This document shows positions 1 to 15,734 of a stretch of DNA of 15,734 nucleotides, piece by piece (the first letter of the stretch is position 1; each line of letters begins with the position of its first letter). The stretch covers positions 1 through 15,734 of the forward strand of contig JABFOP010000225.1 of NCBI GenBank assembly GCA_016618385.1, written 5' to 3'. This DNA comes from Nymphon striatum (Eukaryota). A program made the position numbers and the translations under genes. The notes beneath the pieces were generated by a model. It did not search any database. It worked only from the letters and a program-made list of their open reading frames with translations, and had not been told where the DNA came from.

Positions 1-584
1 ATCCCGTAAAAAATATCATGATTAAGAGCTTAACCATAACCACGAATAACAAACCACTATATCAGGTGGATTAAGGAATTATGGGTCTTGGCTTAGAAGA
101 TTTGCGGGCCTAGCTAAACATTAAAAAAGAAGTATTGCTTAGAGCAACAGTTATGAATTTATAGATTACATTTTTTTTTAGAATTAACACATTTTGTATT
201 TTAGTAACTGATAATTCTATTAACAGGACTTTTTTCAGTTTTTTTTAAATTGCACTTTTAAGCTCGACACATTTTTGAAAGCATTTAACAACAAAATTAA
301 ACAGCAGCAAATATATTACCGATCACAATTTTTGTTTCAGTTTTTTTTATTATTACGCTTCCTATCTACAAGTTTGGATATCTGCGCGTAATTAAATTTA
401 AAATGTTTTGAAAATCATCAACAAAATTGTTTTGCTATTTAAAATTGCGAGCCTCTCGTAGCTACGGGCCTTAGGCTACAGCCTATCAAGCCTATACTCT
501 ATCCGCCACTGGATATAAATAATATTCTGTTCTGAAAATGGAAAGGCTCATTTGGAATCGTCCTCCATTTCTTATTAACGTCTA

Positions 585-672
585 CAGCTTAGACGAGAGG
601 CATGTGCCACTACTTTTGGAATCGGTGCATTAATTAGCAATGAATAGCTGTAAGGCAGTTTGAGGGTTCATC
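585..672 (+). repeat. Copy of an uncharacterised dispersed repeat. Its inverted partner is at about 8800-8912.
   Basis: Seen in sequence: 'cgtctacagcttagacgagagg' and 'aatcggtgcattaattagcaatgaatagctgtaaggcag' recur as reverse complement at 8818-8912 ('ctgtaacgg...ctgtaaggtaag...aatcggtgcattaattagca'). Boundaries are approximate. Confidence 0.4.
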
Positions 673-1565
673 TCTCGACTGAACCTTTCCTATCACTTTT
701 TTTTTTATATATACACAACTCGTCCCAAGACGATCGTTCTTTAATCAGTAAAATTGTTACATAGTGTCTAGGAATTTGAATAGTTGAGTACATGTACATA
801 ATAATACAATTGTACAAAACATAGAACATTTACAATGAAAACAGTGTATATTTGACCAACTGACCAATAAAAATCTATCGTGGACCTTTACTCTTGAGCT
901 AAAACTTCATGCTAACGTGGTTCATCACAAACCAGACATCATAGCTTCACACACAAATTCTGACTCCACTATTATATTCGACTCAACTATTAGAAACGAA
1001 CTGTTGAATCAATGTAGGCACATGGAAATTTTTTTCAAGTTGTCCTAATGAGGTTTAAAATGTCATGAGGGGATAGAGCTTGGAATTACCTTTAAAATGA
1101 TACCTCATATGTCAAAATCCCTCCACCACAACCTGATTTACATCATTTTAAAGGGCGTAATTAAGGACTAATTAAACAATACATTTTACATAGAAACAGA
1201 CGAAAGAATTGTGATGGTAAAATAGTCAGAAAATAGAAGGGAAACTTTCTAACATCAATATCTTAATCCCAGAGCAATCCGATCCATCCTACCTCTAAAT
1301 CATAGTAAAATCTTCATCTAACATCATACTTCATAAATATGATGTTTATTCTTCATAATATGGCACTTAGTTTGGCCAAATAATACGTATTTTTTGTTAT
1401 TATTGATGTTGAATCAAGATGAAATTTCCAGAAAATCGGGTCAATTGAACTGGTGGAAGCAAGATGGCGGCCCCCATAACAAGATATGCGGCACAGATTT
1501 CAAAAATGGTCATTTTTGAGTTGAATAAAGCCTAAACTAAGTGTGCCTATCTTATCAATGATGTG

Positions 1566-1607
1566 CATTACTTCTTAGGTAAATCTTAGGTAAATTCTTA
1601 GGTAAAT
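1566..1607. repeat. Short tandem repeat, an 11-bp unit 'cttaggtaaat' present three times
   Basis: Seen in sequence: 'cttcttaggtaaatcttaggtaaattcttaggtaaatctgg'. Confidence 0.6.
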
Positions 1608-1740
1608 CTGGTGACTTTTATTCGACAAAATTCGAAATTTTTATCAAAAATCGGAGATCTTCCGTCAATTGTTCATTGATTTGCATCCATAGATATATAT
1701 AGAGAACTAGATAGCAGATCTATTGGTCAGACGTGAAGTA

Positions 1741-2170
1741 AATTGAAGGCGATCAACTCGGCCTAATTTTTCAATTTCACAGCATTGTTTTCAAGTGAAA
1801 GTGGAAGTTTTCAAGTTTTCAAGTGGATCGGGGACCGTATCGGGGTTTCCTAAGCTTTTGTGATGGCTTACAACTTATCAAATATCAATTTAACCTGCCT
1901 CGTTTGATTTACAGAGGGAAAACAGAGAGTCGTCCCAGTCGATTTTGATTCAAACTTGAAGGTTAAATCGAAATCGACTGGGACGACTCTCTGTTTTCCC
2001 AAATCAAACGAGGCAGGTTAAATTGATATTTGATAAGTTGTAAGCCATCACAAAAGCTCAGGAAACCCCGATACGGTCCCCGATCCACTTGAAAACTTGA
2101 AAACTTCCACTTTCACTTGAAAACAATGCTGTGAAATTGAAAAATTGGGCCGAGTTGATCGCCTCCAATT
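1741..2170. repeat. Large near-perfect palindrome (foldback-type inverted repeat). Arms are about 205 bp (1741-1946 and 1971-2170) with a central spacer of about 22 bp. Weaker inverted-repeat similarity extends to about 1723-2188.
   Basis: Seen in sequence: left arm 'aattgaaggcgatcaactcggcctaatttttcaatttcacagcattgttttcaagtgaaagtggaagttttcaagttttcaagtgg...cagagagtcgtcccagtcgattt'. The reverse complement of the right arm is 'aattggaggcgatcaactcggcccaattttt...cagagagtcgtcccagtcgattt'. There are only about 3 mismatches and one small indel across about 200 bp. Each arm carries internal 'ttttcaagt' sub-repeats. Confidence 0.9.
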
Positions 2171-2284
2171 TACTTCATCTCACCGTCAGATTTAACATGG
2201 TGGACACGCCCATTCGTCAGTCCAGTTCTCTATACAGGTCAGTGTTTGCATCAGATAAGAACTAAAATGTAGGGCAGCCTATGG

Positions 2285-2395
2285 CGTATGTAACAAGCCT
2301 TCTGATTGGTTGAAATAATGCAGAGTACAGCTCCAGCGCGATTCGGCAGCCACCGGTGCAAAAATGAGGAAATTTAAAATTTAACGTCGCTCACA
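2285..2395 (+). promoter_or_regulatory. Speculative promoter-like segment: an inverted CCAAT box ('ctgattggtt') and an A/T-rich TATA-like 'tttaaaattt' upstream of the ATG at 2455
   Basis: Seen in sequence: 'ccttctgattggttgaaataatg' at about 2298-2320 and 'aatttaaaatttaacg' at about 2368-2385. This GC-richer block lies immediately after the palindrome and upstream of a 66-aa ORF (2455-2655). No homology is recognised for that ORF. Confidence 0.15.
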
Positions 2396-3010
2396 CAGTT
2401 CTCAGGCACAGATACACATGAACAGATATGCGGTGATTTCCAAGTGCCTACTCAATGTCTAAAGCGAAGGAAGAGAAAATAAATAATTACGAAGCACTCC
2501 TGCCAATATGGTTCGGTGCACGTGGAGCTGTAGGTCCAGAAGCTATTTCTATTCTATATAATAAATTCAATTTGAAGAATGACTTTTTAAATGAAATCTC
2601 CATAAAAATACTTAAAACATGCTTACAGCTATATTTTCATGTAATTCACGCTTGATTTTTAATGTTCATTTTTATAATGTTCATTTATTAAAATTTCTAT
2701 AATATGTTTTATCATTTTATTCATATTATCTCGCCATTGTTATCATTTTTCTTTTTTGTCCTTTCTTTTCTTTTCATTGATTTGTGTTATTTTCATGACA
2801 ATCTATTTTTTTGTATGGCTTTGTAAGCTGCTTTTTATATAAATAAAAAGATTTTTCTTCTCTCTAGTCTGAGACAGCTGATGTATAACGTTTAAGATTG
2901 AATTTGTGGATCAAAACGCCAAACAATAATATCCTTCTTCCTCAATCTTTCTGAAAGTCTGAATAGGAAGATAGAGGACGACTGAAAATGAGAATTTAAG
3001 CTTAAACCCA

Positions 3011-3042
3011 GCAAAACAAACAAACAAACAAACAAAATCCAT
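3011..3042. repeat. Microsatellite (CAAA)n, about 6 units
   Basis: Seen in sequence: 'gcaaaacaaacaaacaaacaaacaaaatcc'. Confidence 0.85.
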
Positions 3043-3469
3043 CTTCTTAGACACTAAGAAGAAGAGATTATCGAAAAGAAAAATCACATGAAGAAAGGTC
3101 CCTCAACCTACACTCCGGCAAACCAGTGTGAAAGCCACTTGTCTAAGCTATAGATATTTTATACACACGTATAACACTTCAGTTTGCAAAAGTGCTGTAC
3201 TGTGTGCATTATTTTGTGATAGAATAAGTTTGGTTTCTAGCTTTTGCCAAACCTATGCTATTCTCCAACCATTCTGAAAGTTCATGTAAGAGGATGGAAA
3301 AATACTCCAACACTAAAGAAAGCCCAGATTGTTGAGTGGTATAAGATCTTTCTGGGCCAGATTGACCCAGGCCCGAATTTCATTCCACCCTTTCATCCTT
3401 TACGTTGTGTATTTATCATACGTTCCTCTCTGAAACTTGATGCATGTTGGCTTAGGATATAGAGGATAT

Positions 3470-3598
3470 GGAATGAGTGCCCGTTGGATACATCAATATC
3501 ATATCCAACGGGAACGAATTTCGTATTCTGTTTATCACATAACTGGCAGATAGCTTTGAAAGTAATTAAAAATATTTATATAAAATAGATTCAGTTGC
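3470..3598. mobile_element. Right-end fragment of a MITE-like element. It comprises the terminal inverted repeat of the 'ataaacagaata' family plus the internal 'gaatgagtgcccgttgg' hairpin module.
   Basis: Seen in sequence: 'gaatttcgtattctgtttatcacataactggcagatagctttgaaagtaattaaaaatatttatataaaatagattcag' is the reverse complement of the left-TIR sequence found at 10440-10520 and 10965-11055. It is preceded by the perfect 11-bp-stem hairpin 'cccgttggata catcaatatcat atccaacggg'. Confidence 0.5.
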
Positions 3599-4397
3599 TC
3601 TTTTTTTTTTCAACACAGCGATTTCAAATTTACGTGATTTTAAAGGAAGAAAGAAAACATGCATTAATACAGTGTAAGCTACTGAAAAAAAAAAAAGAAA
3701 AAGTTGAGTTTCAAGTTGCACAAAAGAAAATTGTTAATTTACACTAGGATATTTTGAAGTTTATTGAACTTAGAGAAGGAGGATCTATATTGGATATAGC
3801 TCCTTCTTCTCCAAGGTTATTAAACATGTGACAAAATTAATTCTTATCGATAATTGGTTATGCTTACTAAACCCATGTGTGTGGAGTGCTTTTAGTCGAT
3901 GATTGGTGAAACTTTCAAGAAACGTCAAATGTATTGCATACCACTGAATATCGCCTCTTTTATGTGATAAAAAAATGTACACAGATATCCAAGTTAACAT
4001 ACATTACCTTATTACCTCTGAACGTTAAAGAACTAACTTAGTTGTTCAAAGAAGAATAGAGCGGAGGACCCTGTGAATTTTCCTTCATGTAACGCGATCT
4101 ATGACATTAAATAGCTATAGATCGTTTCATCACACAACTTCTATAAATATTGTAAATATCGTAAACACGTCCTATAATGTAATAATAATAATAGCCTTTA
4201 CCACACGTTAAATTGTCTTTTACAGTAGAGTCGAATCTCATTTCCCCAATTTCATTCATCTTCAGTTTAGATAACAAAAAAAAAATTCATTTTGTCAGAT
4301 ATGTCTAGTCAACATTGAACCGAACACTCAATTTTTTACTTTTGAAACTTAATAGCCCAGGGGCCTACACTACTTCCCTCCCCTCCACAATGTTATC

Positions 4398-4600
4398 GTG
4401 TGAATGCTTCCCTGTATCAAATTGAATCAATTTTAAAATCTACTTTAATTAATAAATTCATTTTGTTGTATGATAAACCGAATATAAAATTCGTGACTGT
4501 TGCTTATGGGATATATGAAACTCGCCAACTTTGTTTTAATTTCAGCTCGTTCCATATATCTCATAAACAACGGGCACTCATTCTATGTCCTCTATTTATT
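4398..4600. mobile_element. Left-end fragment of the same MITE-like family. The inner TIR is diverged and the internal 'caacgggcactcattctatgtcctctat' module is present.
   Basis: Seen in sequence: 'aattgaatcaattttaaaatctactttaattaataaattcatttt' matches the TIR outer part at 10440 and 10965. 'caacgggcactcattctatgtcctctat' (4569-4596) matches 'tgcccgttgctcattctatatcctctatg' (11063-11090) and the reverse complement of 'gaatgagtgcccgttgg' (3476-3492). Confidence 0.45.
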
Positions 4601-5444
4601 GTAATATCGATCAATCTTCCTGTTTCCTTTCAATCAAAATGCCAGTGTCTAGCGTATGAAGAATGGAGCTTTTTAAATAGTAGCTGCTCTTTCAAAAGTT
4701 CACAAACTGTATAATTTTCTTGGACTCAATGTCGCCACTACACTTGAAGGTTATTTATAGAGCTCAGGAAAAGCGGCAATTCCATATAGATTTTATTGTT
4801 TCGGATCAAACAATCGCTTATATTTTCAATTTATCCCTGTTACATCCATGCTTCATCTCACATTTTAAAATACAATTTTTATTTCTTAACTTATCTGTAA
4901 ATATTTTAATGATAAAATCGATAAGATTTCTTGAGGACGGAGTATTGAACATTTTCGACGCTTAAACTGCCAAACTTTTGATATATGATTGAAGAATAAG
5001 ATGGTAAATATTGTCAACATCTGCCAGAAATATTACCAGCAAAACTTTTAGAGCGAAGACTTATCGGATCGTGTCTGCAAAAGAAGACTGACATTAAGGA
5101 AACCGTTTTCATAGCTGAGTCATATGGCAGCTATGGTTGGTCATGAATAAGAATATCTAAAGCGTTTAGCATCAAAGGCAAACTCGTGGACGATATCCAA
5201 GAAAGGACAATAAGCCATTAAGGTACACAGCAACATATTGCAAAACAACTTGTAATGGTCGTTTAAGACATTTGAATCACTCTATAAAGTATCTTCTGAA
5301 CAAATCCCAATAGCTATGAATTACAGCTCATTGTCATTTTTAGCAACTGATATCCATAGCTATCTGTGACCGCTGAGACTAGAATAGAGAACATATTTCT
5401 GGGCAGCAAAAGTGAACTAAAAATTATGAGTCAATATTAACACC

Positions 5445-6110
5445 CCCCCCCACTCAAGTACATTTAGGGGCCGCATGCGCGTTCCGATTTTTTCGGGAAA
5501 GGCTGGGGTATTTCCAAGGAAAAACTCGGGTGAAAAATCCCAGAAAAATCAAAAATAGGGGGTTAATTTTATGATCGAACCCCGAGAAATTAAAAAAAAG
5601 GGGGATTTATTTCAAAGATGCATGCCCGAGTTAATTAGTTAGTTAGTTCCTACATAGTTGCCAAGTTTTTGCTCCCAATTTCACCTATCCTTTAAATTGA
5701 AACTTAACTCATGCTTATATGAAGGGGGTAAAGGGGGTGCCAAATGGCATAAATCGCATATAAAATCGAAATTATAATGAATTACCATGCACCATCATTA
5801 GGCAGAAAATAGAACCGAAGGCTCATAACTGTGCTTTTGTACAGGTGTGGCTTGCACACATATTCTTGGGTCTTATAAATTCTTGATATTTTTGATACCC
5901 TAGAAAGGGGGTTAAAATATTTGAATCCCTTAGGAAAGGGGTACCTGGATCCCTGAAACCCCTTAGAAAGGGAGTGGAAAATGTGATAAAAGCCCGTGAT
6001 AGGGGATAGAAAAATTGGAAAATTCCTTAGATAGGGGGTGCTTTGAAATATTGGGTACACGCTGTGGCCCCCTCCTGTTTGCTGGGACTGGGAGAGCCGG
6101 GTATTAAAAG
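5445..6110. repeat. G-run-rich degenerate tandem and interspersed repeat block. Units are about 25-35 bp of the form 'cc(c)ttagRaaggggg...', and a C9 run at 5445-5453 marks the left edge.
   Basis: Seen in sequence: 5880-6045 'ccctagaaagggggttaaaatatttgaatccc ttaggaaaggggtacctggatccctgaaacccc ttagaaagggagtggaaaatgtgataaaagcccgtga taggggatagaaaaattggaaaattcc ttagatagggggtgc'. Similar G4-5 / C3-5 punctuated units occur at 5470-5620 ('ttaggggccgc...ggctggggta...aatagggggtt...aaagggggat') and 5715-5740 ('gaagggggtaaagggggtgcc'). Confidence 0.5.
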
Positions 6111-6384
6111 CACCCAGTGGCAGGTGTAATTATTGAATTCCTGTGATAACCTGCACTTAATAAGTTGATATCTTCTTTCATAAACGTCAAGAACAACAAT
6201 GGGGTAGATCGATTAACATGAAAATTGCCGTGCAAAACCCTGCTTTCTGTTGCCTAACAACATCTAAAAGGTGCCATCAATTAATCACTAGAGAAAAACT
6301 GCCAGTTATTATTATTTTCTTTTATTTCCAAGGAATTACCTACGGGAACAAGTTCCCTTTACAGGGTCCGTAATAATCTGTATA

Positions 6385-6680
6385 TAATGTAAGTGTACCA
6401 CTTCACCGGGAAGTTGTCACCCTACTCTTGTTCGAATAGTGAAGTGGGTTCTATAACGTGCAGAAGGAATGGCTATCCTTTACACGGAACCTCCATTTAA
6501 CGTCCTATCTGAGGGACAGAGTATTTTCTTTCTAAAACCAACCTGCATCCAGTATCAGAGAGGAGAGCACGATAATACACAACGTAAAGGGAGAACAAGT
6601 GGTGGGGTTCGAATGAGGTTCGAACCTGGGTAATTAAAGCCGAGAATACAGATGTTAACCGCTCAGCCACTGCGCTCTTA
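6385..6680 (-). mobile_element. tRNA-derived SINE, copy 1, near full length. The Pol III A-box and B-box are in the 5' head.
   Basis: Seen in sequence: the reverse complement gives 'gagcgcagtggctgagcggttaac...cccaggttcgaacctcattcgaacc' (A-box-like TGGCTGAGCGG, B-box GGTTCGAACC). The body that follows, '...ctgatactggatgcaggttggttttagaaagaaaatactctgtccctcagataggacg...cactattcgaacaag', is shared with copies at 12250-12512 and 14333-14607. Boundaries are approximate to within 15 bp. Confidence 0.7.
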
Positions 6681-7618
6681 CAGCTCTCACTAATGCAATT
6701 CTACAATTCTCAAAGCCTGAAAACTTCAAGCCAAAAATGTCACTTTCGTGATCTAAAATCAATTATTTGTGAGATGATACAGTTGTGTATTCTTAATATT
6801 TCCTGCTCTCAGTAGTGATGTTGGTGAAAAATGCACTGCAAACTTAACTATATAAATTCATAACATTATACTATGTTCGAGTGAATCTTACATTTAAACA
6901 GTATAGTAATCGCAAATACGTTTAAAAGAAAGAGATGGAATATTGAGAAATATAGTGAGCAGCGTAAGTTTCAAAACGTTTCTGGAAATTTTCAAAATAA
7001 TTCGGAGCAACAGCAATTTTTTTCCTTGGTTTATATTTTGTTTGGTTTACATTTGAAAACTGAATAGTACTGCAGATGAATAATCTATACAGGGTTGATA
7101 TATCATCCTGAAAAGGTTTTCGATTTCATCATTTTGATGATACCAAAAAGTGTCGTCTATCAATAAATTCGTTTTCTTGAAGATATCATTCCACGCAGTG
7201 AAGAGATTAGATTATTCGCGTCAATGCCGTCAAATTCCCTTTCGTCTCTTTTCAGATATCTTATATACTCTAAAGAAACTCAAAGAGCTCAATATGTCGA
7301 AGTGATACGGCGGTGATGACTTATGGTGCCAACAATGGTTAAATGTGGATCGCGTTTGCAGCCTTACTCTGAAGTACCTACATTTTATGAATCTATCTAC
7401 GTACGTATAAAAGCATCTAGAACGATCAATTTCTATGAAAAAACATAAAAAACGTGGCACAGCATCGTTATATGTTATATGATTAATCAAGGAATATAAA
7501 TTTTCAGGAAGAGCAAACTTATATGGACTGCGAAGGCTTTTATGAAAATACCGTTCCTCTTATAACGAAGTGAATTGATGACAAAGAATAAAACAAACAT
7601 TTCATAAGCTAGGGAACC

Positions 7619-8385
7619 ATATGTGACCCGCCATAGCAAAATGAGTCGTAATTCGCACATTTACGAACTGAGCTATAGCCGATTAAAGCAAAGAAAACTT
7701 AAAATTTTCGATTTTTACGTATCTATATAAAATAAAACCCGATAATTAATTTAATGTAAAGGTTCAGTTGATTAAACCACGCTAACTTACTTAAATTTAT
7801 GTTTTTCCCGAGTTGATATTGAAACTATAATATAAAACAATGCATGAAATTAGTCAAATTACCTCATTTTCGATCATTAAACACTTTTCCGCGGAAACCC
7901 CATGAAAATTTAACATCTACAGAATCGTCTCTTTGTCTAGTTTCTAAATATATAAGGCATGTTCGGGTTTTTCCCAATATACACCAATTATCGCTCGGTA
8001 TTTCCACCGGTATTCCATAAAAAAAATGATGCTTGTTGCTAAGATCAAACCACTCCCATCGCTGATTGGCTCCCGTGGCCCACGTGACGAGAATCGCTTA
8101 CTATGTTCAGTGCTATTCATTTGATGACAGACGACAGTTCTCGTTTCACAACTTTTCACAACTTACAATTATGATGATGTTTAAGATCAATTATCTCAGA
8201 ATATTTTTCTTTTTAACTCCGATACACTGGCATCTTTAAAATGTCATAATTCGGTAACCGGTTGATGGATTGAAAAGCTGTTTGGATTTAATGAAAGCTG
8301 ACATTCTTATCTTTCTATTGGTATTTATAACTCCAAATCACAATTTTGCGAATTACGACTCATTTTGCTATGGTGGGTCACATAT
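7619..8385. mobile_element. Nonautonomous DNA-transposon-like element (767 bp) with 39-bp terminal inverted repeats and no transposase ORF
   Basis: Seen in sequence: left TIR 7619-7657 'atatgtgacccgccatagcaaaatgagtcgtaattcgca'. Right TIR 8347-8385 'tgcgaattacgactcattttgctatggtgggtcacatat', whose reverse complement is 'atatgtgacccaccatagcaaaatgagtcgtaattcgca'. That is 38 of 39 identical. The interior has only a 71-aa ORF with no recognisable domain. The interior also carries 'gctgattggctcccgtggcccacgtgac' (inverted CCAAT plus CACGTG E-box). Confidence 0.7.
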
Positions 8386-8799
8386 CATTATTATATAGGT
8401 TCACTTCAATGATGCTGCATGGTAACGCTCTAGGAAATGAGAACTACAATAGTTTTCATTAAGAGGTACTAAACTAAAATTAGATAGATACAGTACACAA
8501 CGTCACAGATCCTAAAACAAGAGTGAGCGTGTAAATTCACTCCGAATATCCCACCAAGAACTATTAAAACCGAAGGAGATTCTGTTAAAGACAATCTTCA
8601 GACTATATAAATGAATATGCATTTATTATTATTATTATTAGGTCAGTTTTACTATCAACTATTATTGTTAAACTTTGAAACATTTTGTTTTGTTAGGTTT
8701 AACAACCCACTGATGCCATGCTATAAAAGCTCATTCGGAGTTATCCTCATCTTCCTATTTAGACTTTTAAAAGGGTTGGAAAATAAAGGGATTATCTAT

Positions 8800-8912
8800 A
8801 GGAAAGATTCAGCTGAGGGAAGAACCTCCATCTTACCTTACAGCAAATCAGTGCTAATTAATGCACCGATTTCTCAAACAGAGGTGAAACCCTCTCGTCT
8901 AAGCTGTAACGG
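8800..8912 (-). repeat. Inverted copy of the uncharacterised dispersed repeat seen at 585-672
   Basis: Seen in sequence: the reverse complement of 8818-8912 contains 'aatcggtgcattaattagcactgatttgctgtaaggtaag' and 'cgttacagcttagacgagaggg', matching 586-672. It overlaps the poly-Leu ORF 8611-9015, so that ORF is not a credible gene. Confidence 0.4.
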
Positions 8913-9361
8913 TAGGAAACATTTTTGCGCATTGTTGTGTTGCAACATCCTGGTCCAACTCTCCAGAACCGAAATCCACAGTTCAAGTATACAGGTCTAC
9001 CATCGTGGAGCTTGAGATCAATAGGGCGGTTATTCTACCGATCTCAGTGGACATAAAAATGTGTTATAAAACGATTAACGGCGAGAGATGTTTTTAATGG
9101 GCAACAGATTTTAAGTGACAATAATCTTGAACAATGACAAATGGCTCTTAATAGTTTTCTTAATGGTTTTTCACTTTACTCAGATGTTTTTATTGCATTT
9201 GACTTGACCGGGGGCTTCAATAGTGTCATTTAATTTAATTACGAGCATTTTAAAGAGGCAACAGATCGGGAAATGCTTTTAATGATTTGGCCAGGGGAGG
9301 CTCTTTGATAAAACCTTACAATTTTCTTTATACATTTGTTCAAACTGAATCTATTTTAAAT

Positions 9362-9418
9362 TAATTTTAATTAATTTTCAAAGCTATCTATTGATTATGT
9401 GATAAACAGAACACCAAA
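9362..9418. mobile_element. Short degenerate fragment of the MITE-like TIR ('...ttttcaaagctatct...gtgataaacagaa')
   Basis: Seen in sequence: 'aattaattttcaaagctatctattgattatgtgataaacagaacacc' resembles the inner TIR 'ttcattttcaaagctacctgccggttgtgcgataaacagaata'. Confidence 0.3.
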
Positions 9419-10092
9419 CTCGACCACGTCGTATACAGAATATATGACGGGAACTCATCACGTATCCTCTATATACTTTTTTCTTGAAACCAGTCCCTGT
9501 ATTTGAAAGAGGCACCCCCCATAAAAAATCTTGGCTACGGGCATGACAACATTGTTTACCCATAGCGGACCTTGGATAAGCCGTTGGCCAAGTTTCATTA
9601 GTTACTAATTTGTTCCGGGTATAAACCAATTTTTACTGTAAACAATATATACGTAGTAACTAACGATCGAGAATAGAAAAGACCAACATTAACTAACATA
9701 GCCTTCATAGTTCTTCGTTCTATTTTACTTGCTATCAAGCATTTTATTAATTACTTCATTAGCTGCTTATTTGAACTGATTCTCTATCTCTTCATTGTCT
9801 TCTAAAATGTGGAGAATAGCTTCAAAATCATCTCCGAAGAAAAACAAATTGTTCATGTCAGCCATACTATAGTGTAAAATGATCTATGCTTATGAACGAT
9901 CAGTGTCACGTGATGGTGCAATTCAACCTCGAACTCCTGACAATAGGCAGTCTTTGAAGTTTGCAGGGTTTCATAACCAGTCTCCTCTATTAACTATGAT
10001 ATGATTAACGCTAGTTTTCCAACGGCAAGGTAGATTATTAGTAGAGATGGCGATGTTGAAAAGAGCTACTTAAAATTATGATATACAATACT

Positions 10093-11055
10093 TTATCGCA
10101 CAACCTTGACTTTATTGCATGCATACGGAGTTCTTATATTTCCTGTATAAGGACACGTCCCTATATTGGTGTTGATTACAGACACAGGGAGTCTGAGATT
10201 GTGAATGTTGCTTACCACAAATTTATTTTTCCTCTGTTTTTTTTTTTCCTTTCAAACACGTCGCTTCTGTATTCAGACATGAGTCATTTTTGTTTTTATC
10301 GTAACTTATCTCTCAATATATCACTCTTTCTGTTTCTCTTCTTTTCTCTATTTCATACTTTCTAACCGAGTTCTCGGAATTCATTGAAGTGTTGAAACTT
10401 TTCCCCCTCTCAACAATTTATTTTCTTTGTTTTAGCTTGACTGGCACAAAACGAATCAATTTTAAAATCTATTTTAATTAATAAATTCATTTTCAAAGCT
10501 ACCTGCCGGTTGTGCGATAAACAGAATATTTATCGCGCAACCTTGACTTTATTGCATGCATTTGGAGTTCGTATATTTCTTGTATAAGGACACGTCCCTA
10601 TATTGGTGTCGATTACAGACAGGGGAAGTCTGAGATGTTGAATGTTTATTTCTGTAAAAATGAGCTATTTTTTTTTCTACCATAAAATATTTTTCATAAC
10701 TTTCTATAATGTATAATCAAGCTATATATTTTAAAAAAAATAAAGTTATTATCTGTAAAAATGAGCTATTTTTCGTGTACTATGAATTTATTTAACAGCT
10801 GTTTTAGACCAAATTCTTTATTTCGTAACGTATTCTCTCCCAACACTCATCTTGAATTTCTTTTACATCGAGCTTCCAAACTTCACTGTCTCAAATTACA
10901 TCAAAATGTTGAAACTTTTCTTCTTTCCCTCTCAACAATTTATTAATTTTTTTTTAGCTTGACTGGCACAAAATGAATCAATTTTAAAATCTATTTTAAT
11001 TAATAAATTCATTTTCGAAGCTATCTGTCGGTTGTGCGATAAACAGAATATTAAA
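10093..11055 (+). repeat. Two-copy tandem segmental duplication, unit 1 about 10093-10520 and unit 2 about 10523-11055. Each unit is a 120-bp block ('cgcRcaaccttgactttattgcatgcat...gtctgagat') followed by a divergent spacer, then a 'gttgaaacttttc...ctctcaacaattta...agcttgactggcacaaaa' block, then the MITE left TIR.
   Basis: Seen in sequence: 10093-10213 and 10523-10640 are about 90% identical. 10380-10517 and 10905-11050 are about 90% identical. The junction 'ggttgtgcgataaa cagaata tttatcgcgcaacc' (10505-10540) is itself a 14-bp-stem palindrome. Confidence 0.65.
10440..10520 (+). mobile_element. Solo left TIR of the MITE-like family, truncated at the duplication junction
   Basis: Seen in sequence: 'gaatcaattttaaaatctattttaattaataaattcattttcaaagctacctgccggttgtgcgataaacagaata' is nearly identical to 10965-11052. 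Confidence 0.55.
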
Positions 11056-11210
11056 TTTGTGCCCGTTGCTCATTCTATATCCTCTATGTGCGTTTTTTTT
11101 TCATGTAAGATATTTTACAGTGGCTCATTGGATATTATGACTTAACTGTGAAGAATTTCGTATTCTGTTTATCACATAACCGACAGATAGCTTAGCAACT
11201 TAATTCAATT
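10965..11210 (+). mobile_element. The most complete MITE-like copy (about 245 bp). It has a left TIR, the internal 'tgcccgttgctcattctatatcctctatg' module, and a right TIR.
   Basis: Seen in sequence: left 'gaatcaattttaaaatctattttaattaataaattcattttcgaagctatctgtcggttgtgcgataaacagaata'. Right (11157-11210) 'gaatttcgtattctgtttatcacataaccgacagatagcttagcaacttaattcaatttgatac'. The reverse complement of the inner 33 bp matches the left TIR with about 2 mismatches. No coding capacity. TSD not resolved. Confidence 0.55.
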
Positions 11211-11777
11211 TGATACATGCAATGTAAGGTACCGGAGCGGAGAAAAAAGTATTTTACCATTTAGAAGTTGAATGAAGCCCCTGGGCAAAGCAGTTAATTA
11301 CTCTATTAGTTTAATTCTCTCTTTTTTTTTTCTTTCAGCCCTCTCCCATGTTGTTGTTTTGATAATGATAACTCTTGGAGGAGGAGAGAGAGGGGCCCTT
11401 CTACTTACACAATATTGTTAGGGTAAACAATTAATCTTCCCCTCTCAACTGAAAAAGAGAATTTAGCCTGAGTAGGAAAAATTCAAAGTAAACAAAAACA
11501 GCAGATTATTATGGAACGTGTCTCCATATTATATGTACGACATGCCCATAAGCACTGAATAAAGCCCAAGTACTGTGACAAATATATATGTATATATGTA
11601 TAAATATGTTGTTGTATCTCCAAGTTCCAATACGGGAGCTTCTTACAGATAATATCTATTGGAATTGCTAAGGAAAGGGGTTTGAGTTGAGGAAAGCAAC
11701 TTTCTTTTTGAAAGATTTTCTGTTCCAACTACATTTTTCCCAAGGTCCTCCACATCCGCAGTTCATACACCTTGGGT

Positions 11778-11860
11778 GGGAAGAGTAGTGAGGGTTTAAT
11801 TCGAACTCAAAACTCCAAGGTTGATGAGCGGGGAGCGAACACTCTAACCATCTGACTTCC
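11778..11860 (-). other. Degenerate tRNA-like segment with Pol III box-like motifs. It may be a tRNA pseudogene or the head of an unrelated SINE.
   Basis: Seen in sequence: the reverse complement 'ggaagtcagatggttagagtgttcgctccccgctcatcaaccttggagttttgagttcgaattaaaccctcactactcttccc' has an A-box-like 'tggttagagtg', a B-box-like 'agttcgaatt', and partial (5-bp) acceptor complementarity GGAAG/CTTCC. No convincing cloverleaf could be folded by hand. Confidence 0.2.
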
Positions 11861-12249
11861 TTATCGAGACATACATAATTTTTTTTTTTATAATGTAAAA
11901 ACCAATTTTTAATCAACCATCCAAACCAAGACCATTCAAATTTAACTTACATGACTCAAACTATTTTAAATATCAAACATTCAGTGTTTTTTGCCTTTCA
12001 TTTGAAAGAGTTGGTCTTTGTTTATAGTTAAATAAGCACATTCATATATGTGGTACGTGCCTGAAAAATTGTGCATTAAAAAATTTCATTCATCAAAGAC
12101 AAAATCACAAATATATTGCATTAAATTCGCATGGGTTTATGGCAAGCTGGAGGTCATATCAATGCGTCCGAATGCTGTGCTTCTCTGTTAGATTACAAGC
12201 CATGGTGGGAGAATCCTCTTTCTCACACCGCAGTCAAGAATTGGCACAA

Positions 12250-12512
12250 CTCACAGGTGCTACACAACACTGAGACCTTACACCCTAATGTTGTTCGAAT
12301 AGTGAAATGTGTTCTTTAACATGCAGAGGGTGTAACACTCCTCTACATGAGACCTCTGTTAATGTCCTATCCGAGGGACGGAGTATTTTCTCTCTAAAAC
12401 CAGCCTGCATTCAGTATCAGAGAGGAGAGCACAAGAATACACAACATAAAGGATGAAAGAGTGGAGGTGAACCTGGTCATTCAAGCTCAGAACAGATACC
12501 TTAACCATTCAG
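12250..12512 (-). mobile_element. tRNA-derived SINE, copy 2. The body is intact and the tRNA head is degenerate, with a deletion across the B-box.
   Basis: Seen in sequence: 'ttgttcgaatagtgaaatgtgttctttaacatgcagagggtg...cctatccgagggacggagtattttctctctaaaaccagcctgcattcagtatcagagaggagagcacaagaatacacaac' is collinear with 6421-6590 and 14360-14510. The head reads 'gagtggaggtgaacctggtcattc...' and lacks GGTTCGAA. Confidence 0.6.
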
Positions 12513-12965
12513 CCTGCTTTATTCATTCAACACTGAATTAAAGCCCCTTTTGGATTACTCTATTTTGAAATTAAGAAATGTTTACCTCACAAGGGGAGAC
12601 ATCTTCCTTTTTAATGACTATTTCGAAAGGAAATACTAAAGAAGATTTGTTAACTTTAATTAACTGTAAATATATTTTTCTATTAATTTACTTAATCAAT
12701 TTATTATAACCTTGCAATACATTACTTTAAAATTGCTTTTCTACTTTTTCCCTACGTTCTCTAATATAATTGGCGGCTATTAATCTACTTAGTAACAGAT
12801 TTTTACCTATAAATAAATTTCAGCAGTGACTTATACAATAACCTGACTGTGCGCGAAGTAAACACGGACCAACCTAGTAATGTATAATAATATAAATGGG
12901 TTGTTATACAATATTGTCTTTACATTTACAAAGTTTATGACAAGTATATTTTTTTATAATCTTAT

Positions 12966-13832
12966 TTATTTATTTTGCTCAGACATTTCTCTAGCACGCA
13001 GTACAGCAGCTTCAAAGGCATCCATCATGGCTGATTTTAGTCCTCCTCTTGTAAGAGCATGGAATCCATGAATTGTTGTTCCTCCGGGAGAAAATATGCA
13101 ATCTGCTAATTCTGCAGGGTGCTTCCCACTTTCTTGAATCACTTTAGAAGCACCTAGTGCTACTTGAGGAGTGAGTTTAGAAGCAATGTGTACAGGCAGT
13201 CCCATTTTCACGGCACCATATGTTAATCCTTGAATACATTCATACATAAAAGCAGTTCCACTCCCTAAGGCTGCCATCAACTCAATTTGAGAATCGGTCA
13301 TTTCTTCACAAATAGCAATACCTTCAAATAACCCAAACAACAGATTTTTGTAATTAGTATTAGTTGTAGAAGATAAACAAATGCCACATATGCCTGCACC
13401 CACCTCTATTGGCACAGTTGGCATGAGGCGGACAAAATTCAATTTCAAATTGGCCTTTCCTAGCCAATTTACATGAGAGTCCATTGAAACACCAGCAGCA
13501 ACACTAACTATTACCTTATCAGAAGTATTTCGAATATTCAACTTTGACAACACATCTTTCATCAAGTATGGCTTAACTGCTAAGAAGACAACATCGCTGT
13601 TGTCAAAAACTACTTGATTATCATGAATAAAATTAACACCAAGTTGGTCGTAAACATCGCGATTACGGTCCGTCGGAGCACTTACAGTTAACCGGTCTTT
13701 ACTGACCTGCTTTTTCAGAAGAATCCCTTTAATTAAAGATCTTGCCATGTTTCCTGCTCCAATAAAACCAATATTCATGTCATTTTGAATAAAGTTGGCG
13801 ATTGACTCTTTGTCTTTGATGATGTTTTCCAT
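12966..13832 (-). CDS. PYCR3: Pyrroline-5-carboxylate reductase, PYCR3/PYCRL-like, 288 aa. It is a single exon and the coordinates include the TAA stop.
   Basis: Seen in sequence: an uninterrupted ORF that begins 'MENIIKDKESIANFIQNDMNIGFIGAGNMARS...'. Motifs: the NAD(P)-binding GFIGAGNMA; 'SAPTDRN'; 'VVFLAVKP'; 'VSVAAGVS'; 'GAVKMGLP'; and the C-terminal 'SPGGTTIHGFHALTRGGLKSAMMDAFEAAVLRAREMS'. Established knowledge: these match the P5C reductase family, and 'SAPTDRN' plus the C-terminal block are closest to the animal PYCR3 pattern. The ATG at 13830-13832 has a Kozak-like context 'cagaATGg' and an in-frame TAA 8 codons upstream. The ORF-track start at 13856 is a GTG. AATAAA is formed by the final N-K codons and overlaps the stop codon. 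Confidence 0.85.
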   Translation of the reverse strand: MENIIKDKESIANFIQNDMNIGFIGAGNMARSLIKGILLKKQVSKDRLTVSAPTDRNRDVYDQLGVNFIHDNQVVFDNSDVVFLAVKPYLMKDVLSKLNIRNTSDKVIVSVAAGVSMDSHVNWLGKANLKLNFVRLMPTVPIEVGAGICGICLSSTTNTNYKNLLFGLFEGIAICEEMTDSQIELMAALGSGTAFMYECIQGLTYGAVKMGLPVHIASKLTPQVALGASKVIQESGKHPAELADCIFSPGGTTIHGFHALTRGGLKSAMMDAFEAAVLRAREMSEQNK

Positions 13833-13887
13833 TCTGACGATTGGGTAAATGAACACTTAGCTGCCACAGAATCACCAATACATATTA

Positions 13888-14134
13888 CAGGGTGTTTCAA
13901 AATAAACAGTGCACTTAATAATGCTGTAAAAAGAAACTTTTTACGACTAAGTTATTAAAATAGAACAATTAATTTGGTTTATATAGAGCGCAGTGGCTGA
14001 GTGGTTATAATAAATGGTTAAAATAACATCTTTATTCTGGGCGTGAATAATCCAGGTTCGAATCTCATTCGAACCCTACACTCTTTCACCCTTAACGTTG
14101 TATATTCTCGTGCTCGTTTCTCTGATATTAGATG
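13888..14134 (+). repeat. Plus arm of a large inverted duplication. It is a non-SINE leader of about 95 bp plus the SINE tRNA head (SINE 5' fragment, copy 4, 13986-14134).
   Basis: Seen in sequence: 'cagggtgtttcaaaataaacagtgcacttaataatg...aatttggtttatatagagcgcagtggctgagtggtt...ccaggttcgaatctcattcgaaccctacactctttcacccttaacgttgtatattctcgtgctcgtttctctgatattagatg'. Its reverse-complement counterpart is at 14471-14682. Confidence 0.8.
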
Positions 14135-14332
14135 TGAATTACATGTATTTAGTCCTTCCTATCTATAGTCTTCGTTTTTCTTTTCACCGTGACAGGTGTC
14201 AACTTTAAGTCAGAAATTTTTGCACTATTCCATTGACCACTCTGGAATAAGTAGTGGGCTCATGGCCTATTATCAAAGGTCAACAGAGTTCGAATAAGTC
14301 CTCTGCTAAGACTCAGACGGCTTTAATGAGTT

Positions 14333-14607
14333 ATGCAGGTGCTTTACGTCACAAGGACCTTCTACAATAGTGAAATGTGTTCTTTAACGTGCAGATAGTG
14401 TGACTCTTCCTACACAGGGCCTCCATGTCCTATCCGAAGGACCGCATATTTTCCCTCTAAAACCAGCATGCATCTAATATCAGAAAGGAGAGCACGAGAA
14501 TACACAAAGTTAAGGGCGAAAGAGTGTAGGGTTCGAGTCAGATTCGAACATGGGTCATTCAAATCCAGAATAAAGATCGTATAACCAACCACTCAGCCAC
14601 CACGCTC
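14333..14607 (-). mobile_element. tRNA-derived SINE, copy 3, near full length. Its head is the minus arm of the inverted duplication.
   Basis: Seen in sequence: the reverse complement of 14520-14607 is 'gagcgtggtggctgagtggttggttatacgatctttattctggatttgaatgacccatgttcgaatctgactcgaaccctacactc' (A- and B-boxes). The body 14360-14515 is collinear with copies 1 and 2. Confidence 0.7.
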
Positions 14608-14682
14608 TATATAAACCAAATTATTTGTTCATTTTTTTTTAAACATCATTATTAAGTGCACTGTTTATTTTGAAACACCCTG
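14471..14682 (-). repeat. Minus arm of the inverted duplication (partner of 13888-14134). The spacer between the arms is 14135-14470.
   Basis: Seen in sequence: the reverse complement of 14586-14682 is 'cagggtgtttcaaaataaacagtgcacttaataatgatgtttaaaaaaaaatgaacaaataatttggtttatatagagcg', matching 13888-13990 apart from one indel of about 35 bp. The similarity continues through the SINE head to 'gatattagatg'. Confidence 0.8.
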
Positions 14683-15091
14683 TAGCCCTACATTTAAAAA
14701 TGGGTCTGGCCATACCTTTTAACATATTATATCATGGACAAGACAAGAATATAACATAAAGGCAAAGTAGTCTTTTGATAATTGGTGTAGAAAATATTGG
14801 AAGATTCAAAGAAATAGTCAAATTTATTTCTTCAATTTATCAGAAATTTATTTGTAACATTAGTTTAATTTACACATTTTGAATTAATTAATTTTTCTGT
14901 ATTAAAATAAATTAATAATAAAAGAAGTAGAAAAGAAATAGGCTGCCTTATGACAGATGGCACTTTTCTACTACAAAAAACTTACTTCAGTTTTGGAATG
15001 ATGGCACATTTCACCTGCAATATGCCATACCTAGGAATTATCTGGTATCAGGAAATGTGTCTAGAAACAGTGAAAATGAAGCTCACTATCG

Positions 15092-15109
15092 GTAAAAAAA
15101 AAAAAAAAA
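15092..15109. repeat. Poly(A) homopolymer of about 18 nt
   Basis: Seen in sequence: 'ggtaaaaaaaaaaaaaaaaaagag'. Confidence 0.9.
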
Positions 15110-15653
15110 AAGAGAATACAGCAACTTTTCAAGTACTGGTACTATATTACTATGGCCTTAGTGAATTAAGGATTGCAGTAATATAATACACATTGACATC
15201 ATAATTTTTCTTAAAAATGCTTTGAAAAATTTGAATATAAATTTATATAACAAAATTATAAAATCAACATTCACTTTTGATGATAAATATGATTGATATT
15301 AATGACTAGTGATCAATTTTACTGGGTAAAATATAAAAAAAATATGATAAAATAAAATAAAAAGTAATAATAAATATTAAATCATTACAGATTCAAAAAT
15401 TGAAGCCAGTAAGGAATCCACTGCCTTCACGGACCAATGCACCTCATTTTTGTGAGGAAGGGCAAATACTGGAATAAAAGTAATCAGTTCTGATCAATCT
15501 AACTATTATTCTCCATTGTCAAGAAGAAAAAGCACACCATGGAACATTGGGGAAGACAGTGTCAACAACTGGCAAGAGTGTAGGAGACTTATATCATGTT
15601 AAACCCCATAAGTGGAAATACAGACTTTAATTGAAGATGATGGCAAACTATTT

Positions 15654-15717
15654 CAAACTAGAATTTGAAATTTCAATTACAAATTATAAATATTGAAATT
15701 TCAAATTCTGGTTTGAA
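15654..15717. repeat. Hairpin-forming inverted repeat. Stems are 24 bp with 1 mismatch and the loop is 14 nt. It sits at the window edge.
   Basis: Seen in sequence: 'caaactagaatttgaaatttcaat tacaaattataaat attgaaatttcaaattctggtttg'. Confidence 0.8.
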
Positions 15718-15734
15718 AAATGTGGCTATCATCT

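Follow-up and report, generated by a model that had tools for sequence, protein, structure and literature searches.

The DNA considered here is a stretch of 15,734 nucleotides from Nymphon striatum (GenBank assembly GCA_016618385.1, contig JABFOP010000225.1, positions 1 to 15,734 of the forward strand), below called the window; taken as a whole, it is repeat-rich, has a G+C content of 34.5% and is of eukaryotic character. Centered near position 1958 lies a long, near-perfect palindrome, and the question that this locus raises is whether the palindrome is a mobile element standing on its own, a product of local rearrangement, or a part of something larger. A first-pass annotation made from the letters alone had described a foldback-like element with a promoter-like block at its side. 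We find that the palindrome is the innermost layer of a nest, and that no free-standing element in unique DNA is present: with high confidence, the tail of the second open reading frame (ORF2) of a long interspersed nuclear element (LINE) is interrupted by a 1,438-bp DNA transposon (1014-2451), which in turn contains the palindrome, situated off its center. Hence the apparent free-standing foldback beside a promoter has to be replaced by a nest of LINE, DNA transposon and palindrome. Overall, the feature is transposon-borne palindromic DNA, that is, ordinary biology of a known sort, and for the palindrome itself, a commonplace hairpin derived from a transposon is the most likely explanation, rather than some specialized device of the genome or an element tied to a promoter.

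Extent and fold of the palindrome

The palindrome proves genuine, and it extends slightly beyond the limits given initially (1741-2170): its arms occupy 1734-1957 and 1959-2177, giving 444 bp in total, with the symmetry axis at approximately 1958 (Table 1). The repeat search paired 1734-1910 with 2001-2177 (177 nt, 98%) and, between these, 1916-1957 with 1959-2000 (42 nt, 93%). When 1734-1957 was aligned with the reverse complement of 1959-2177, there were 213 matches, six mismatches (five transitions and one transversion) and a single 5-nt indel. The symmetry had been called far beyond chance, and an estimate of the hairpin free energy had been proposed as a check; both are borne out, as the predicted fold of the single-stranded DNA has a free energy of -260.1 kcal/mol, compared to -50.9 +/- 3.6 for shuffled sequences (z = -59), and the comparison of the palindrome with itself by blastn yields E = 2e-166. 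The composition of the palindrome is approximately 60% AT.

The spacer of about 22 bp that had been placed between the arms turned out not to be a true spacer. Save for three mismatches, the segment 1946-1970 is self-complementary, and it is predicted to leave a loop of only about 4 nt. Three of the six arm mismatches are situated within 12 nt of the axis, and this clustering is significant (binomial p = 0.003); it could be explained by a short spacer in the ancestor or by the survival of those changes that disrupt the center. The central mismatches also fit the principle that a longer spacer or a lower similarity of the arms reduces the risk of instability (PMC7999016).

At the outer side, both boundaries of the palindrome are equally sharp. 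No mirror symmetry was found in the 120 nt on each side of the arms (p = 0.63), and a larger, older palindrome reaching past the arms is ruled out by these unmirrored flanks. As for the weaker inverted repeat that had been noticed about 18 bp further out, the letters are indeed present, but the similarity is not significant (p = 0.08).

The arms resemble each other (97-98% identity) far more closely than do the copies within other repeat families in the window (65-85%), and hence, judging by sequence divergence, the palindrome would have arisen in a young event or else have been homogenized. This is consistent with the recent origin or ongoing conversion assumed in the initial description.

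The expected physical behavior of such a structure can be considered in comparison with the human palindromic AT-rich repeats (PATRRs), such as PATRR11 (~450 bp): the palindrome is of a similar size, near-perfect and almost spacer-less, and the same behavior is therefore predicted for it (PMC7999016). The instability of palindromes is known to rise with the arm length, with the arm identity and with the shortness of the spacer, and the human genome contains only 718 near-perfect spacer-less palindromes longer than 200 bp (PMC7999016). PATRRs, however, are more than 90% AT (PMC7999016), whereas the palindrome studied here is approximately 60% AT and resides inside a transposon. With this reading of the comparison, the palindrome is predicted to form a hairpin or cruciform, to stall polymerases, to be fragile and prone to deletion, and to be a site of mis-assembly, and it should be flagged for the users of the assembly.

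The layers around the palindrome

The outermost layer is defined by protein similarity on both sides of the palindrome. A short open reading frame at 2437-2652, compared by phmmer with 1.84 billion representative proteins, has one strong match (E 4e-11), which covers the last 56 residues of P0121, a Nymphon striatum protein of 1197 aa with an RVT_1 domain, deposited as an R2DM-like Pol polyprotein. In tblastn, residues 1065-1115 of this protein match 848-1000 (55% identity, E 3e-12, or 6e-14 in a second run), and residues 1120-1197 match 2452-2652 (45% identity, E 2e-17). The two matches are collinear and on the same strand, so that a gap of four protein residues corresponds to 1,451 bp of the window. 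In the matched part of the protein, the motif CCHC precedes the motif KPD...D, an arrangement typical of LINEs with a restriction-like endonuclease. The LINE copy is decayed, as its halves are in different frames and 11 residues are missing; when the two pieces of the LINE tail were joined and searched against proteins, no match was obtained.

From the gap of four residues against 1,451 bp, with terminal inverted repeats (TIRs) and a target-site duplication (TSD) at its edges, we conclude that 1014-2451 was inserted in the LINE. The two TIRs match at 15 of 16 positions, and directly outside both of them there is a perfect TSD, TCAAT. In a control with 20,000 randomly drawn pairs of 45-nt segments, a TIR with an adjacent 5-nt direct repeat was observed once, and here the TIRs and the TSD sit exactly at the break between the two LINE protein segments. 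Thus TIRs, a perfect TSD and an otherwise continuous sequence that has been interrupted are all present, as expected of a cut-and-paste element.

No open frames longer than approximately 58 aa were found in the host element, and a Pfam scan of it in four reading frames gave no significant match. By its sequence, it is a bona fide cut-and-paste DNA transposon with TIRs and a TSD, devoid of coding capacity and inserted into an older LINE. In all these respects it is similar to generic class II nests; it differs from them in the 5-bp TSD combined with the terminus GTAGGCAC..., for which we know of no superfamily signature that could be assigned with confidence. The palindrome axis (approximately 1958) is displaced from the midpoint of the host element (1732.5).

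This arrangement also changes the interpretation of the GC-richer block at 2180-2440, which had been considered promoter-like and contains an inverted CCAAT box. The block (2178-2451) does have a higher GC content, 45% compared to 34.5% in the window, and GATTGG is present, but it is no host promoter: because it lies within the TIRs and the 5-bp TSD that split the LINE ORF, it is read as transposon interior, the right part of the element. Likewise, since the palindrome is the innermost layer of the nest, no regulatory role is to be assigned to the block. Comparison of 2178-2435 with the left part of the element and with the rest of the window revealed no similarity.

Two further motifs were noticed in the host element, CAAGATGGCGGCC at 1459-1471 and a tandem of three TCTTAGGTAAA at 1573-1606. 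The former resembles the YY1-type core AAGATGGCGGC, and both could serve the host transposon as internal motifs for regulation or binding.

The nested layout bears, in addition, on the possibility that the palindrome is an artefact of sequencing or assembly, formed by a fold-back chimeric read or by mis-joining of an inverted copy. Chimeric long reads and whole-genome amplification are known to yield long, near-perfect palindromes, so such an origin has to be considered. However, a fold-back chimera would mirror everything past the turn-around point, whereas the flanks here are unmirrored; the TIRs, both copies of the TSD and the two LINE halves are found on either side in the correct order and strand; and the arms differ by six substitutions and the 5-nt indel, unlike copies of one molecule. 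We therefore consider an artefact extremely improbable.

Table 1. Coordinates of the palindrome, the host transposon and the LINE remnant. Positions are those of the window.
Feature	Position	Strand	Basis
LINE ORF2 C-terminal region, left half; ends in TCAAT	848-1013	+	tblastn with P0121
LINE ORF2 tail through the stop codon, right half	2452-2655	+	phmmer, tblastn; ORF ends at 2655
Non-autonomous DNA transposon, 1,438 bp, with the palindrome off-center within it	1014-2451		TIRs, TSD, split LINE
Left TSD copy TCAAT	1009-1013		read from sequence; adjoins TIR
Right TSD copy TCAAT	2452-2456		read from sequence; adjoins TIR
Left TIR GTAGGCACATGGAAAT, 16 nt	1014-1029	+	complementary to 2436-2451, 94%
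Right TIR, plus strand ATTTCCAAGTGCCTAC, contains TTTCCAAGTG	2436-2451	-	TIR alignment
Right interior of the host element, 45% GC, with GATTGG	2178-2435		within TIR/TSD limits
Extra exact TTTTCAAGT, 3 nt past the end of the host left TIR	1032-1040	+	exact count
Palindrome, left arm, 224 nt	1734-1957	+	repeat search, arm alignment, folding
Palindrome, right arm, 219 nt	1959-2177	-	repeat search, arm alignment, folding
Indel ACAGA, 5 nt, left arm only	1911-1915	+	arm alignment
Center of symmetry: three of the six mismatches (1946/1970, 1951/1965, 1954/1962) and a loop of ~4 nt	1946-1970		alignment, folding
Three TTTTCAAGT of the left arm, 54-82 nt from the outer end	1788-1824	+	repeat scan, exact count
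Mirror TTTTCAAGT copies of the right arm	2087-2123	-	repeat scan, exact count
Candidate left TSD GTCAGA (or TCAGA at 1727-1731, then CG at 1732-1733)	1726-1731		direct-repeat scan; suggestive only
Candidate right TSD GTCAGA (or TCAGA at 2186-2190)	2185-2190		direct-repeat scan
Putative right end: TCTCAC (6 nt, no left partner), then CG	2178-2185		read from sequence

Origin of the palindrome

There are several possible ways in which the palindrome could have come to reside in the host transposon. We tentatively favor, with not quite even confidence, a nested insertion: the palindrome would be a hairpin-shaped, non-autonomous element similar to MITEs (miniature inverted-repeat transposable elements). 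The unit, at approximately 1732-2185, would be a short non-coding derivative of a DNA transposon, consisting entirely of two long inverted repeats, and a transposase would have inserted it into the larger element, with (G)TCAGA as the duplicated 5-6-bp target. Situated 54-82 nt from the ends, the copies of TTTTCAAGT(G) would be subterminal repeats of the kind that long-TIR elements use as extra transposase-binding sites. The arms would be 97-98% identical since the family consensus itself would be palindromic and the copy would be young compared to the other repeats of the window. In this case, the empty site of the host element, with 1014-1731 joined to 2191-2451, is predicted to read ...TTGGTCAGATTTAAC...

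The main competing possibility, which we regard as quite plausible, though the less probable of the two, is that the palindrome arose in place, by an inverted duplication in which about 220 bp of the host element's own sequence were copied in reverse beside themselves, or that it has always been an integral internal palindrome of the host family. The duplication could have proceeded by template switching, by snap-back synthesis in replication, or by gap repair after transposon excision. No separate transposition would have taken place, and (G)TCAGA would be a chance repeat or junction microhomology.

The ends of the palindrome provide the arguments in favor of the nested insertion. Both bounds are sharp, which is not in favor of a duplication in place, and GTCAGA or TCAGA is found outside both ends. 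The initial description had suggested looking for TSDs at about 1722 and 2189, and a candidate, (G)TCAGA, does flank the unit, but it is only marginally significant: the chance of a flanking direct repeat in 14-nt flanks is 0.03 for at least 6 nt and 0.12 for at least 5 nt. Flanking direct repeats of 4-10 nt were scanned, and none longer than 6 nt was found; TA, TTAA and 8-bp candidates for the TSD of the palindrome were checked by eye, and none was found. If the mobile unit is 1732-2185, the CG at its right end mirrors the CG at 1732-1733, and under the 5-bp reading of the TSD (TCAGA) the duplication has the same length as that of the host element. Neither the symmetric CG termini nor a TSD of the host length would be predicted by an inverted duplication, and the direct repeat (p = 0.03) also speaks against it. 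In addition, the arm has only a 9-10-nt motif, and nothing longer, in common with the rest of the host element and of the window; this, too, is at odds with an arm copied from the host sequence in place.

TCAAT, the firm TSD of the host element, and TCAGA, the candidate one of the palindrome, agree in their length of 5 bp and in their first three letters, TCA; the agreement could be due to a common target preference or to coincidence.

The general properties of the unit also resemble those of MITEs. It is short (444-454 bp, compared to the usual size of less than ~800 bp) and non-coding, and its inverted repeats are 97-98% complementary. The longest ORFs of the palindrome that start with ATG, GTG or TTG comprise 41-44 aa, the longest stop-to-stop frame is 49 aa, and there was no Pfam match on the palindrome. 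Several other MITE-like inverted-repeat elements are found in the window, and hence such elements seem to be common in this genome. A documented near-perfectly palindromic MITE is human Made1, the source of hsa-mir-548 (PMC1784062). Like the palindrome, it is short and non-coding, it consists almost entirely of two inverted repeats with few unpaired central bases, and it forms a stable RNA hairpin (PMC1784062). Made1, however, is an 80-bp (2 x 37 bp + 6 bp), high-copy element derived from mariner and flanked by a TA TSD, whereas the palindrome is 444-454 bp long and has no TA TSD. If many such units are present in the genome, they would constitute a new MITE family, and possibly a transposon lineage with 5-bp TSDs, in an under-sampled animal group.

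The internal sub-repeats noticed in the initial description are real. TTTTCAAGT has eight exact copies in the window, compared to 0.66 expected, and six of these are within the palindrome, three per arm: at 1788, 1808 and 1816, with mirror copies at 2087, 2095 and 2115. In each arm, the only tandem array detected by Tandem Repeats Finder is an 8-nt unit repeated 2.5 times; two of the three 9-mers are in tandem, and apart from the three 9-mers the arm sequence is mostly unique. A further exact copy is adjacent to the left TIR of the host element (Table 1), and its region agrees with the arm copies at 12 of 13 positions; TTTCCAAGTG, inside the right TIR, is one mismatch away from the arm motif.

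Several observations weigh against the nested insertion, and a part of them agrees better with an origin in place. The termini of the palindrome are unlike the host TIR, and yet an exact TTTTCAAGT is found 3 nt past the left TIR, for which the chance, estimated post hoc, is approximately 0.005; this fits an arm sequence native to the host element and hence a duplication in place, as does the one-mismatch version in the right TIR. The candidate TSD is marginal (p 0.03-0.12), and it requires that TCTCAC, 6 nt at the right end, be left unpaired, since GTCAGA/TCAGA is offset from the strict end of the inverted repeat by 2 nt on the left and by 7 nt on the right. The low divergence of the arms (six mismatches in 219) is as would be expected for a recent local event. 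Finally, the searches for further copies yielded nothing. There is no second copy of the arm in the 15.7-kb window. The translated arms (the three longest stop-free segments, joined) produced two word candidates among 5.8 billion proteins, and neither of them scored. An exact 24-mer from the terminus and an exact 21-mer from the inner arm had no occurrences in metagenome and prokaryote-genome contigs, the same 24-mer had none in viral contigs, and blastn against plasmids and phages gave no match. The searches outside the window covered collections without the source genome, so they have no bearing on the copy number.

A contamination by a vector or construct was also considered, and it is excluded by the blank blastn against plasmids and phages.

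One more scenario combines the two elements. The palindrome and its host could be two members of one uncharacterized DNA-transposon lineage of a poorly sampled metazoan, with 5-bp TSDs starting with TCA, a common transposase-binding motif TTTYCAAGTG and actively maintained arm identity, the upkeep being due to gene conversion between the arms or to selection on double-stranded RNA that silences the family, and only mutations disrupting the center being tolerated, as stabilizing the DNA; taken jointly, these assumptions make for a rather improbable reading.

The structure of the arms allowed us to assess the membership in the Foldback family proper, which had been suggested from the overall shape. 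Elements of this family (Drosophila FB, Galileo and Tetris) would have a transposase of the Mutator or P superfamily, TIRs built of tandem arrays and TSDs of 7-10 bp, the TSD length being 9 bp in FB and 7 bp in Galileo. The palindrome resembles them in that two inverted repeats form nearly the whole unit. In FB-like elements, too, long inverted repeats have little or nothing between them and carry short subterminal motifs (PMC3688188, PMC4079207), and the distance of TTTTCAAGT from the ends is similar to that of the first (proximal) transposase site of Galileo, located about 70 bp from the end, with further sites in the TIR repeats (PMC3688188). On the other hand, the TIRs of FB-like elements are modular tandem arrays of variable length (PMC4079207), whereas the arms here are mostly unique, with three 9-mers in each; no flanking direct repeat exceeds 6 nt, and hence none of 7-10 bp is present, while the TSDs of Tetris comprise 8-10 bp (PMC4079207); and there is neither a middle domain in the unit nor a transposase in the window. 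Thus, the palindrome has long inverted repeats that account for most of its length, but neither tandem-array TIRs nor the TSD length of the family, and we consider a true Foldback element very unlikely. From what its sequence predicts, the palindrome would behave in part as foldback elements do, yet it should not be classed among them.

The predicted RNA fold of the palindrome (-390.5 kcal/mol, z = -51) suggests yet another possibility, a selected hairpin-RNA gene (hairpin RNA or microRNA-like), whose transcript would be diced to silence a target or a transposon family; such a role would be compatible with a transposon origin. Along with the fold, the arm identity well above that of other repeats of the window and the documented origin of small RNAs from palindromic MITEs (PMC1784062) speak in favor of it, as do sub-threshold Rfam microRNA matches at the center of the palindrome. 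However, these matches are far from the gathering thresholds (mir-964, 42.5 vs 100 bits; mir-154, 32.5 vs 52 bits), and any perfect hairpin would score in this way; at the gathering threshold, no Rfam match was found. The mismatches between the arms show no strand bias towards G-U wobble, two being wobble-compatible on the plus strand and three on the minus strand, and the search with the translated arms revealed no target-like coding similarity. We thus regard a selected RNA gene as very unlikely, if marginally less so than membership in the Foldback family. A host function of the palindrome is probably absent. If it were read through by transcription, it would still yield a double-stranded RNA of approximately 220 bp, a possible substrate of RNA interference, as in the case of Made1 and mir-548 (PMC1784062).

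The Rfam matches that appear at the E-value level were dropped as evidence of an RNA gene, being generic hairpin matches.

Other features of the window

The rest of the window contains several more repeat structures. The region 13886-14684 is an inverted-repeat structure of approximately 800 bp with 65% identity overall; its 51-nt ends (TACAGGGTGTTTCAAAATAAACAGTGCAC...) are 92% complementary and have TA at both outer edges, so that, by its sequence, it has the look of a MITE of the Tc1/mariner type. It carries inverted copies of a SINE-like (short interspersed nuclear element) dispersed repeat, which is found at 6399-6678, 12263-12514 and 14366-14608 on the plus strand and at 14024-14134 and 3321-3453 on the minus strand, with 68-82% identity between the copies; for this family, ARAGORN detected no tRNA and Rfam gave no match. 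Another MITE-like unit, 767 bp long, is located at 7619-8385 and has terminal inverted repeats of 44-60 nt (85-93%), ATATGTGACCCGCCATAGCAAAATGAGTCG....

A short dispersed repeat with the core TATTCTGTTTATCACATAAC..CAGATAGCTTTGAAA occurs in both orientations at 3454-3596, 4373-4514, 9343-9477, 10401-10530, 10920-11080 and 11144-11208, and probably represents one end of a further family of MITEs or DNA transposons. A tandem duplication of 522 bp (10080-10530 and 10516-11052, 69%) is present as well, and so is an inverted pair of dispersed repeats at 576-693 and 8798-8914 (118 nt, 77% identical). A second palindrome, at 15635-15734, has 43-nt arms that are 86% complementary and a 14-nt spacer; since it reaches the very end of the window, it may be incomplete.

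The only long ORF of the window, at 12969-13856 on the minus strand, is intronless and encodes a 296-aa PYCR3-like pyrroline-5-carboxylate reductase (P5CR) with the Pfam domains P5CR_dimer and F420_oxidored. The ORF has no exact counterpart on record; its nearest relatives, in Logan runs, are 84% and 62% identical, whereas the named matches, from vertebrates and insects, do not exceed 43%. A related contig aligns to the window only over the P5CR coding region, and the intronless ORF may be a retrogene.

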